Of a stretch of 64,000 nt of DNA, positions 9,798 through 39,701 are shown piece by piece. Position 1 is the stretch's first letter, and each line of letters opens with the position of its first letter. The stretch is taken from NCBI RefSeq assembly GCF_028693505.1, contig NZ_JAQUVF010000011.1, forward strand, positions 832 to 64,831, in the 5' to 3' direction. The notes beneath the pieces were generated by a model. The model worked only from the letters and a program-made list of their open reading frames with translations. It had not been told where the DNA came from and did not search any database. This stretch comes from Oscillibacter sp. (GTDB taxonomy: Bacteria; Bacillota; Clostridia; Oscillospirales; Oscillospiraceae). Made by a program: the position numbers and the translations under genes.

Positions 9798-10003
9798 GGA
9801 CTGGCCTAAGGCCAGCCCCCAGTCTGTCGATAACCCCTAAAATCCCAAAAAACGGGAAGGAAGATAGTTACGAAAGAAACCCAGGAAGGGTGTCTTTCGT
9901 TTTCAATCATAAGTTTTTGATACTTTTCACGGGTTTCAAAAACTTGCACAGCGTGTCGAAAAGACTTTTACGACATGCTGTGGACTGGCCTAAGGCCAGT
10001 CCC
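9798..10003. mobile_element. 161-bp MITE-like element, copy A (9820-9980), flanked by a 22-bp duplicated palindrome
   Basis: Core is the reverse complement of the copies at 33363 and 39092. Flanks are GGACTGGCCTAAGGCCAG(C/T)CCC at 9798-9819 and 9982-10003. Confidence 0.8.
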
Positions 10004-33325: not shown

Positions 33326-33561
33326 GGCATGGTTTTCGTCACCTTGACGAAAACCATGCCCTCAGCTTGCCGAAAACTTCTTTTCGGCAAGCTGAGCAAG
33401 ATTTTTTGAACCTCTTGAAGTTCAAAAAACTTCTGATTGAAAACGAAAGACACCCTTCCTGGGTTTCTTTCGTAACTATTTTCCTTCCCGTTTTTGGGGT
33501 CATCAGGGTCTGCTGGCAGACTGCGGGCATGGTTTTCGTCACCTTGACGAAAACCATGCCC
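33326..33561. mobile_element. 161-bp MITE-like element, copy B (33363-33523), flanked by a perfect 36-bp duplicated palindrome
   Basis: GGCATGGTTTTCGTCACCTTGACGAAAACCATGCCC at 33326-33361 and 33526-33561; shares the core with copies A and C. Confidence 0.82.
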
Positions 33562-39056: not shown

Positions 39057-39288
39057 GAGCAAGGCGGGAAAGAAGTCTTTCCCGCCTTGCTCAGCGTGTC
39101 AAAAAAGTCTTTTCGACACGCTGTGCAAGTTTTTGAAACCCGCAAAAAGTTTCAAAAACTTATGATTGAAAACGAAAGACACCCTTCCTGGGTTTCTTTC
39201 GTAACTATCTTCCTTCCCGTTTCCCGGGATTTCAGGGTTTAATTGATAGCCTGAGCAAGGCGGGAAAGATTTCTTTCCCGCCTTGCTC
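39057..39288. mobile_element. 162-bp MITE-like element, copy C (39092-39253), flanked by a 36-bp duplicated palindrome
   Basis: GAGCAAGGCGGGAAAG-(AAGT/ATTT)-CTTTCCCGCCTTGCTC at 39057-39092 and 39253-39288; shares the core with copies A and B. Confidence 0.82.
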
Positions 39289-39340
39289 TTTTTGGGGTGC
39301 CGCATTGGCGTGCCGCACCGTTTTCTGCGCAGCGGAAAGC

Positions 39341-39696
39341 TTCCGCCTCCCCCGTCCGTCTCCGACGCGAAGGCGCGAAGCGTTTGCGTCGGAGACGTAG
39401 GAAGAACGTAGCGGTGTGAGGAATCGGCAACGCCGGTTCCGAATGAAGCGCAGTTTCTTCCGCGTCCCCCGTCCATCTCCGACGCAAAGGCGCGAAGCGT
39501 TTGCGTCGGAAGAGGAGGAAGAACGTAGCGGTGTGAGGAATCGGCAACGCCGGTTCCGAATGAAGCGCAGTTTCTTCCGCGTCCCCCGTCCATCTCCGAC
39601 GCAAAGGCGCGAAGCGTTTGCGTCGGAAGAGGAGGAAGAACGTAGCGGTGTGAGGAATCGGCAACGCCGGTTCCGAATGAAGCGCAGTTTCTTCCG
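39341..39696. repeat. Tandem array of three 117-bp palindrome-rich units (REP/BIME-like)
   Basis: Units start at 39341, 39458 and 39575. Units 2 and 3 appear identical; unit 1 has a few substitutions. No spacers. Confidence 0.92.
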
Positions 39697-39701
39697 ACGA
39701 C

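Follow-up and report, generated by a model that had tools for sequence, protein, structure and literature searches.

A probable IS1182-type MITE with a covarying folded interior between duplicated terminator-like hairpins in Oscillibacter

Positions 33363–33523 of the window (the whole analysed stretch of 64,000 nucleotides from Oscillibacter sp.) are the inside of a 164-bp element spanning 33362–33525, which is very probably an IS1182-type MITE. The element sits between two copies of one terminator-like hairpin duplicated on insertion, and paired mutations do preserve the shape of its three internal hairpins. As an explanation of these features as a whole, a MITE mobilised in trans, with an interior fold selected at the DNA level, accounts for them best, and we give it about an even chance of being right.

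The element, its copies and its target hairpins

The features of this element (copy B) and of its two sister copies in the window (A and C) are as follows.

9820–9981, minus strand: MITE copy A, 162 bp, with 22-bp hairpin copies at 9982–10003 and 9798–9819
33326–33361, no strand: left copy of the target duplication, terminator-like hairpin GGCATGGTTTTCGTCACCTTGACGAAAACCATGCC(C), 36 bp, identical at 36/36 positions to 33526–33561
33362–33525, plus strand: MITE copy B, 164 bp, from BLAST and nhmmer copies, its limits set by the flanking duplication
33363–33394, plus strand: HP1, CAGCTTGCCGAAAA (33363–33376) paired with TTTTCGGCAAGCTG (33381–33394), loop CTTC
33398–33432, plus strand: HP2, A/T-rich, AAGATTTTTTGAAC (33398–33411) paired with GTTCAAAAAACTT (33420–33432)
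33434–33493, plus strand: core, 60 nt
33434–33442, plus strand: unpaired conserved lead-in TGATTGAAA, top-residue frequency 0.85–0.87
33443–33473, plus strand: HP3, the core hairpin, ACGAAAGACACCC - TTCCT - GGGTTTCTTTCGT, with near-invariant tip and covarying lower stem
33474–33490, plus strand: pyrimidine-rich conserved tail AACTATTTTCCTTCCCG, top-residue frequency 0.89–0.90
33491–33509, plus strand: variable segment, top-residue frequency 0.59–0.61
33510–33525, plus strand: right terminal inverted repeat, worn in copy B, CTGCTGGCAGACTG followed by CG against the consensus TTTTCGACAnnCTG
33526–33561, no strand: right copy of the duplicated hairpin, 36/36 identity with 33326–33361
39093–39252, plus strand: MITE copy C, 160 bp, with 36-bp hairpin copies at 39057–39092 and 39253–39288

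In HP1, one arm is the left terminal inverted repeat and the other an inverted copy of it inside the element. The identical 36-bp hairpins on both sides of copy B are GC-rich (GGCATGGTTTTCGTCACCTTGACGAAAACCATGCCC), and those flanking copy C agree at 34/36 positions, both differences lying in the loop. The core's first 46 nt are found without mismatch at exactly three places in the window (9864–9909 on the minus strand, from 33434 and from 39163) and not once in 100 shuffles. The three 60-mers differ at a single base, C/T at 33480, which bears out the 59/60 identity reported in the initial annotation, and the sequences that it quoted are all present where it had placed them. Directly downstream of copy C, at 39300–39700, lies a tandem array of palindrome-rich units of about 117 bp (GTCTCCGACGCGAAGGCGCGAAGCGTTTGCGTCGGAGAC ...), which is unrelated to the element.

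The window's own genome (G000, an assembly of 2.06 Mb in 49 contigs) contains nine copies of about 160 bp, with three in the window. BLAST revealed the element in 15 of the 25 sampled genomes of the genus and in none of 16 genomes from 16 other families of the order. The relative G011 carries at least 40 copies, most of them 96–100% identical, a similarity that marks a recent burst. A degenerate pattern made from the tip of HP3 and the tail matched at least 118 stretches of public contigs. The matches listed were all labelled Oscillibacter, Dysosmobacter, Oscillospiraceae and similar, and they include the cultured Oscillibacter valericigenes An860/An890, Oscillibacter sp. 1-3 and Pseudoflavonifractor phocaeensis. 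The exact core pattern was present in 2/401 genomes sampled evenly over the order, and a reversed control pattern in none. From these order-wide counts, the matches at genus level and the public labels it was therefore concluded that the family is, as far as the sampled sequences indicate, narrow and essentially restricted to one GTDB genus of gut Oscillospiraceae with rare strays. In another family of the order, one genome of the 400 sampled matches the core pattern exactly, at a single place (G446:C49:2332–2370) and as the sole case of its kind, which could be due to horizontal transfer or to a binning error.

Flanking direct repeats were found around 40 of about 60 copies in the genus, with a median length of 31 bp (17–49) and a median folding energy of −23 kcal/mol; the hairpin that they form, at whose foot the element is inserted, is different at every site. 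The same flanking duplication accompanies 67 of 95 further copies on public contigs. Where G000 carries copy B, genome G052 lacks the element and shows one homologous hairpin (GGTTTGGTTTTCG...CGAAAACC); where it carries copy A, G055 and G275 are likewise empty and have a single terminator; and, reciprocally, sites that are filled in relatives (L015, L028) are single hairpins in G000. Because relatives carry these single-hairpin empty sites, insertion with duplication of the hairpin is proven. No older orthologous copies were found, every comparable site being empty in the other species. The orientation of the element with respect to the T-tract of the terminator was unbiased (5 plus, 7 minus, 11 two-sided).

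Two loci (L103, 5640–6040, and L155, 4050–4480) carry arrays of the form hairpin-element-hairpin-element-hairpin, in which near-identical elements are separated by a third copy of the target hairpin. Such arrays, the layout of which resembles a repeat-spacer array, may come from re-insertion or from unequal crossing-over between duplicated hairpins. At another locus of G000 (L016, contig C44, 1465–2019), a copy lies directly behind the RNase P RNA gene (RF00010, 270 bits, 1665–2019 on the minus strand); it has the orientation of this gene and lies within the gene's duplicated terminator hairpin.

Relation to IS1182-type insertion sequences

The consensus reads CAGnnTGTCGAAAA at the left end of the element and TTTTCGACAnnCTG at the right end. 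Of 88 copies with flanking duplications, 92% have a left repeat with at most three mismatches and 68% such a right repeat, against 0.5% for random sequence. The same ends bound a complete IS in a related family (L031, 1396–2999), which codes for an IS1182-family transposase (NF033551, 400 bits versus a cut-off of 270). In the window's genus, corresponding IS ends were read at L039 (CAGGCTGTCGAAAAAGTCGAGC), L048 (CAGTCTGTCGAAAAAGTTGGG) and L042 (right end, ...GGGTTTCTCGACAGGCTG), and a full IS scoring 402 bits at L211 (CAGCATGTCGAAAAAGTCC ... CCTCGACAGACTG); the match between the ends of the MITE and those of IS1182-type IS extends over 14–18 nt. Each of the IS ends at L039, L048, L042 and L211 adjoins the foot of a terminator-like hairpin, and the autonomous copies have subterminal hairpins of variable sequence beside both terminal repeats. 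Being short, non-coding and dispersed, the element has the properties of a MITE; no open frame is consistent across the 66 aligned copies described below (alignment A1), variants shifting the frame. A small protein gene was rejected, as its ATG is replaced by CTG in copy B, substitutions in the copy on C1 follow the pairing and not the codons, and a GCGCAGG variant shifts the frame. Assignment to the IS1182-type MITEs can be made with high confidence. The initial annotation had argued against a decaying IS fragment. This holds insofar as the interior is not passively decaying, its fold being maintained by compensatory change; the element is nonetheless a non-autonomous IS derivative, very probably of IS1182 type.

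Searches for an IS1182 transposase gave no match in G000, the copies of which are therefore orphans, and found no intact gene in G011, where a 74-residue C-terminal fragment stands at a contig start and its downstream end lacks the expected repeat; draft assemblies such as these may have lost IS copies. Intact IS1182-type transposase copies are present in G056 and G154 of the genus. Comparison of the MITE interior with 43 IS-bearing loci detected no similarity beyond the terminal repeats, and a derivation of the interior from the parent IS was rejected for this reason. A likeness between HP3 and the right subterminal hairpin of the IS (GGGTTTCTCGACAG against GGGTTTCTTTCGTAAC), noticed by eye, found no support by BLAST. 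The abundant transposases of G015 were discarded as drivers since their ends differ (TAATGACTACTGAATAAT type). A REP/REPIN or IS200/IS605-type element was likewise rejected, long target duplications and DDE-type terminal repeats being present, as was a group IIC intron, with no group II intron match in Rfam, a length of 160 bp, no ORF and a duplicated hairpin.

Several variant copies deserve mention. At L211 (1360–1400 and 2960–3000) and L216, a full-length IS lies between two different hairpins and not between two copies of one, which suggests that each end was joined at a hairpin foot; judged from this layout, it looks as if the ends were joined at separate neighbouring terminators and the DNA between them was lost. 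At L044 (G050:C84, 2400–2500), an IS1182-type transposase gene breaks off near residue 334 and runs into the left half of the MITE (HP2 and HP1) in inverted orientation, after which a hairpin follows; this locus is by its sequence a hybrid of the autonomous and the miniature element. The copies at L015 (G021:C18, 1380–1640) and L144 have kept the core hairpin, the tail and a hairpin-containing duplication of 34–47 bp, and have GC-rich left parts without a recognisable IS1182-type terminal repeat.

In the IS1182 family, IS1272 and TnSha1 of staphylococci have been reported to target hairpins irrespective of their sequence (PMC4923244). Wan et al. drew a model in which the 3' ends of the transposon attack a stem-loop at its feet once it is extruded; by one path the stem-loop is replaced, by another (path b) it is duplicated (PMC5678879, Fig. 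13). As with IS1272 and TnSha1, the element described here points to a DDE family that chooses hairpins or terminators by shape and not by sequence. Contrary to those two elements, which delete or replace part of the hairpin without duplication, here the whole hairpin is duplicated, and the mobile unit is a 160-bp non-coding derivative with a conserved folded interior. MITEs of the IS1182 family are represented by MITEPye1 of Paracoccus yeei (PMC11578231) and by elements of 160 and 169 bp in Methanosarcina acetivorans, the partner of which is ISMac2 (PMC3852290). Our element shares with them small size, absence of coding capacity, IS1182-like terminal repeats, presumed mobilisation in trans and a predicted fold. 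It differs in duplicating a whole hairpin, while 4-bp duplications or none were described for the others (PMC11578231, PMC3852290). Hairpin targeting, a covariation analysis, an invariant internal block or modular extra hairpins are reported for neither MITEPye1 nor the M. acetivorans MITEs.

A further comparison is offered by bcr1, the Correia/NEMIS elements of Neisseria and ERIC of enterobacteria, which are intergenic miniature elements with a predicted fold conserved partly by compensatory change and can be co-transcribed with their neighbours. They belong to different transposase families and make short fixed duplications (TA, TTTAT), and to our knowledge none of them duplicates a whole terminator hairpin. 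Our element resembles them as an intergenic miniature element with a conserved fold and departs from them in the duplication of the whole terminator hairpin.

Covariation and conservation of the interior

Alignment A1 comprised 66 distinct full-length copies from 15 genomes, and base pairs were counted for the three hairpins. Standard pairs occupy 91.6% of the cells, versus 81.5 ± 0.4% in 500 shuffles, none of which reached the observed value, and at most 52% of cells pair in a control with the 3' partner slid by 1–3 columns. Changes on both sides were observed in 25 of the 40 pairs (302 cells). RNAalifold, to which the structure was not given, arrived independently at the same three hairpins, and 19 of 31 pairs in its prediction are compensated; the hairpin that the initial annotation had placed in the core is HP3.

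Pairing is kept in 95.6% of the cells of HP1, where both partners changed in 7 of 14 pairs; in HP2, both-side changes affect 12 of 13 pairs across copies. The differences between copies B and C in these two hairpins are paired, as had been claimed. Up to four pair types occur at one position (CG 35, GC 26, AU 1 and UA 1 at columns 7/34; CG 32, UA 23 and GC 9 at columns 8/33). The left repeat covaries with the internal arm of HP1 and not with the true right repeat. In the stem of HP3, four positions have exchanged AU for GC or CG, and GCGCAGGGA..TCCCCGCGC stands in place of CGAAAGAC..GTTTCTTTCG in 14 copies; this hairpin also contains fixed mismatches, C.T in 28 copies and A.C in 30. In distant copies, the sequences of HP1 and HP2 are almost wholly different, the hairpins are retained, and the tip and the tail are fixed.

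The mean top-residue frequency differs between the parts of the element as follows.

HP3 tip ACCC-YTCCT-GGGT: 0.95
Tail AACTNTCTTCCTTCCCG (...CTTCCTTCCCG): 0.89
HP1 arms: 0.88
Lead-in TGATTGAAA: 0.85
HP2: 0.72
Right terminal repeat: 0.68
Variable segment: 0.59

The initial annotation had assigned selection on structure to the flanks and selection on sequence to an invariant core. A short block is indeed far more conserved than its surroundings, but this division is too simple because the core stem covaries as well: the tip ACCC-YTCCT-GGGT and the tail CTTCCTTCCCG stay fixed, whereas the stem of HP3 changes by pairs.

A depletion of mutations in the core was also observed among copies of recent origin. 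In a young subfamily of G011, represented by 24 copies with at least 92% identity to their consensus (only a quarter of that genome's copies being sampled), 3 of 50 substitution events fall within the 56-nt core where 17 were expected (p-value 2e-6), and 3 of 33 private substitutions do so (p-value 9e-4, about fourfold depletion), values to be read with the homopolymer-rich flanks and the origin of the copies from draft metagenome genomes in mind. This depletion of private substitutions hints at a constraint on resident copies and not only on transposing ones.

Some copies carry one or two additional modules inserted in HP3. Module X, an insert of 45–50 nt in the 5' arm, is found in six copies (G000 C3, L232, L233, L235, L098 and L120) and forms two hairpins, TGGCCcaGGCCA and TTGCCGC-TTCG-GCGGCAA. 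Module Y, an insert of 55–60 nt in the 3' arm, is found in three (G000 C48, L234 and L235). The module-bearing copies of the window's genome are the following.

C48:18538–18705: copy with module Y
C3:53155–53326: copy with module X

L235 is the sole copy with both, and its 268 nt fold into a five-hairpin junction closed by the base of HP3 (−107.9 kcal/mol, z −7.1). The modules show compensatory changes of their own (TGGCC..GGCCA versus CGGCC..GGCCG; GCCGC..GCGGC versus GCCCC..GGGGC), and several of their loops are UUCG or UGCG (UNCG type) on the plus strand. Neither module was found outside the element.

Possible roles of the interior fold

For the interior, we tentatively favour a cis role at the DNA level in mobilisation over a role as RNA, although its probability stays somewhat below one half. 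In the proposed mechanism, an IS1182-family DDE transposase would mobilise the MITE in trans. This structure-specific enzyme would link each 3' end of the element to one foot of a hairpin or cruciform extruded from the target, and repair would therefore duplicate the whole hairpin, as the IS1272 model foresees in its path b. Selection at the DNA level would act on the interior fold because only copies keeping the fold would go on transposing. HP1 would put the left cleavage site at a hairpin foot, the geometry that the enzyme seeks in its targets; extruded HP2 and HP3 would serve as hinges bringing together the two ends of an element which, at 160 bp, is about one persistence length long; and the invariant tip and tail may be a sequence-specific contact for a protein.

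The leaning towards a DNA role draws on the symmetry of the mismatches, on a left cleavage site placed at the foot of a hairpin, on the subterminal hairpins of the autonomous IS and on the physical need of a 160-bp element to have its ends joined. No strand asymmetry was detected in wobble pairs (49 G.U versus 77 A.C cells), and both strands fold equally well (z −6.7 and −6.6), a combination that apparently does not fit an RNA acting from one strand; for the choice of a strand, wobble pairs, folding energy and orientation were all uninformative. Against the DNA-level reading count the absence of a transposase from G000 with a mere fragment in G011, and the lower conservation of the right terminal repeat compared to the core. 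Furthermore, the sampled autonomous IS share only the terminal repeats with the MITE, and the transposase therefore does not obviously need the core, and a DNA role does not explain the most conserved block.

Selection on resident copies for a structured RNA module, acting in cis or in trans, is possible but doubtful. The element splits a terminator, and host transcription would read into it because the first copy of the hairpin loses its U-tract on splitting. The folded RNA would have an invariant CU-rich loop and tail, which are anti-Shine-Dalgarno-like on the plus strand and Shine-Dalgarno-like on the minus strand, and its candidate roles are that of a stabiliser or terminator at 3' ends and that of a partner binding a protein, ribosomes or mRNA leaders. 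Such a role would account for conserved unpaired nucleotides beside covarying stems, for the roughly fourfold shortage of private substitutions that the core shows in a young burst and for the absence of this core from autonomous IS copies. The modules in HP3, building a five-hairpin junction with its own compensatory changes and UUCG/UNCG loops, look RNA-like. HP1 followed by a U-run was scored as terminator-like on the plus strand by scan, and HP3 followed by UUUUCAAUCA is terminator-like on the minus strand when read directly from the sequence. RNA-level effects are known for other MITEs, namely bcr1 of the Bacillus cereus group and the Correia/ERIC elements.

On the other side, no Rfam family was matched at any threshold by the standard element or the large variant (Rfam 15; best scores 23–27 bits versus thresholds of 40–176, and nothing at gathering for the large variant). 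G.U pairs are not in excess over A.C and the two strands fold alike; the orientation is unbiased; the scan detected no promoter-like site inside the element; no reading frame is consistent; and the copies are lineage-specific insertions and not conserved loci. A CsrA sponge on the minus strand, considered for the GGA motifs in loop and tail, was dropped because the genome, 97.7% complete, has no CsrA gene, which removes one candidate partner. A guide-like RNA, one of the suggestions of the initial annotation, found no supporting evidence. Near the nine genome copies no neighbour recurred, be it a nuclease, a recombinase or an RT gene; the only shared "proteins" were translations through the element and ordinary ABC ATPase paralogues.

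A more specific form of the RNA proposal holds that the core is a modular, transposon-borne structured RNA (tip ACCC-YUCCU-GGGU, CU-rich tail, optional helices X/Y) made by read-through of the split terminator and acting by its sequence, for example as an anti-Shine-Dalgarno mimic or as a decoy for a protein or ribosomes. We regard it as improbable. If it were true, the MITE would be a vehicle seeding a regulatory RNA behind dozens of genes, and the longer persistence of the core compared to the terminal repeats would be explained by selection on that RNA rather than on transposition.

An interior devoid of function is likewise unlikely. Bacteria are well known to correct imperfect palindromes by template switching, and this process, acting without selection within the quasi-palindromic hairpins of the element during replication, could generate apparent covariation; the conservation of the core would then reflect youth, the way in which copies were collected and a lower mutability than that of the homopolymer-rich flanks. 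The narrowness of the family (2/401 genomes of the order, 15/25 of the genus), the collection of copies by similarity, which favours conserved blocks, and the position of many variable sites in A/T runs and loops agree with such an origin. However, the three hairpins and those of modules X and Y keep their pairing through CG, GC, UA and AU at single positions, and in some copies HP1 and HP2 have diverged almost completely while tip and tail are fixed. The fixed mismatches of HP3 (C.T in 28 copies, A.C in 30) should have been corrected away, and the depletion in the core holds inside a single young subfamily.

The weakest proposal, which we consider very improbable, names another enzyme as the mover, such as a Cas1-like or other structure-specific integrase, with coincidental or secondary IS1182-like ends: the hairpin-element arrays, the perfect duplications at L092, L144 and L015 without recognisable terminal repeats and the uncorrelated presence of the MITE and of IS1182 genes across draft genomes of the genus speak for it, but it is opposed by the 17–18-nt end match to IS1182-family IS of the same genus in 92% of copies, by the adjoining of those IS copies to hairpin feet in the same manner, by the junction of a truncated transposase gene with an inverted MITE left half at L044, and by the routine loss of multi-copy IS from draft metagenome genomes. 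In spacer integration, Cas1-Cas2 makes two staggered strand transfers flanking a palindromic repeat, which is thereby duplicated, and repeat-insert-repeat arrays are built; the duplication of a whole palindrome of 20–50 bp is similar to this repeat duplication. The analogy is a mechanistic one, as no cas genes take part here, the insert is a fixed 160 bp with terminal inverted repeats, and any terminator-like hairpin may be the target.

An IS1182-type MITE from a hairpin-seeking family is, as a category, already known. The consistent duplication of the whole hairpin, the covariation in all three interior hairpins, the persistence of tip and tail beyond that of the terminal repeats and the optional modules go beyond published descriptions. 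In well over a hundred natural insertions, the copies show a duplication as long as the hairpin, the footprint expected if the stagger of the two strand transfers is dictated by the shape of the DNA and not by the enzyme. They thereby illustrate a duplication mode that was drawn in the model for IS1272 and has been poorly documented. Miniature transposons are normally expected to conserve their ends alone, whereas the ends of this element are looser than its internal tip and tail. Given loose ends, a compensated fold and the acceptance of extra modules, the element therefore needs its interior for something. For annotation, these elements account for duplicated terminators and for "structured" intergenic repeats in gut Oscillospiraceae, and their cultured carriers (Oscillibacter valericigenes, Oscillibacter sp. 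1-3) make both the mechanism of transposition and the RNA role accessible to experiment.
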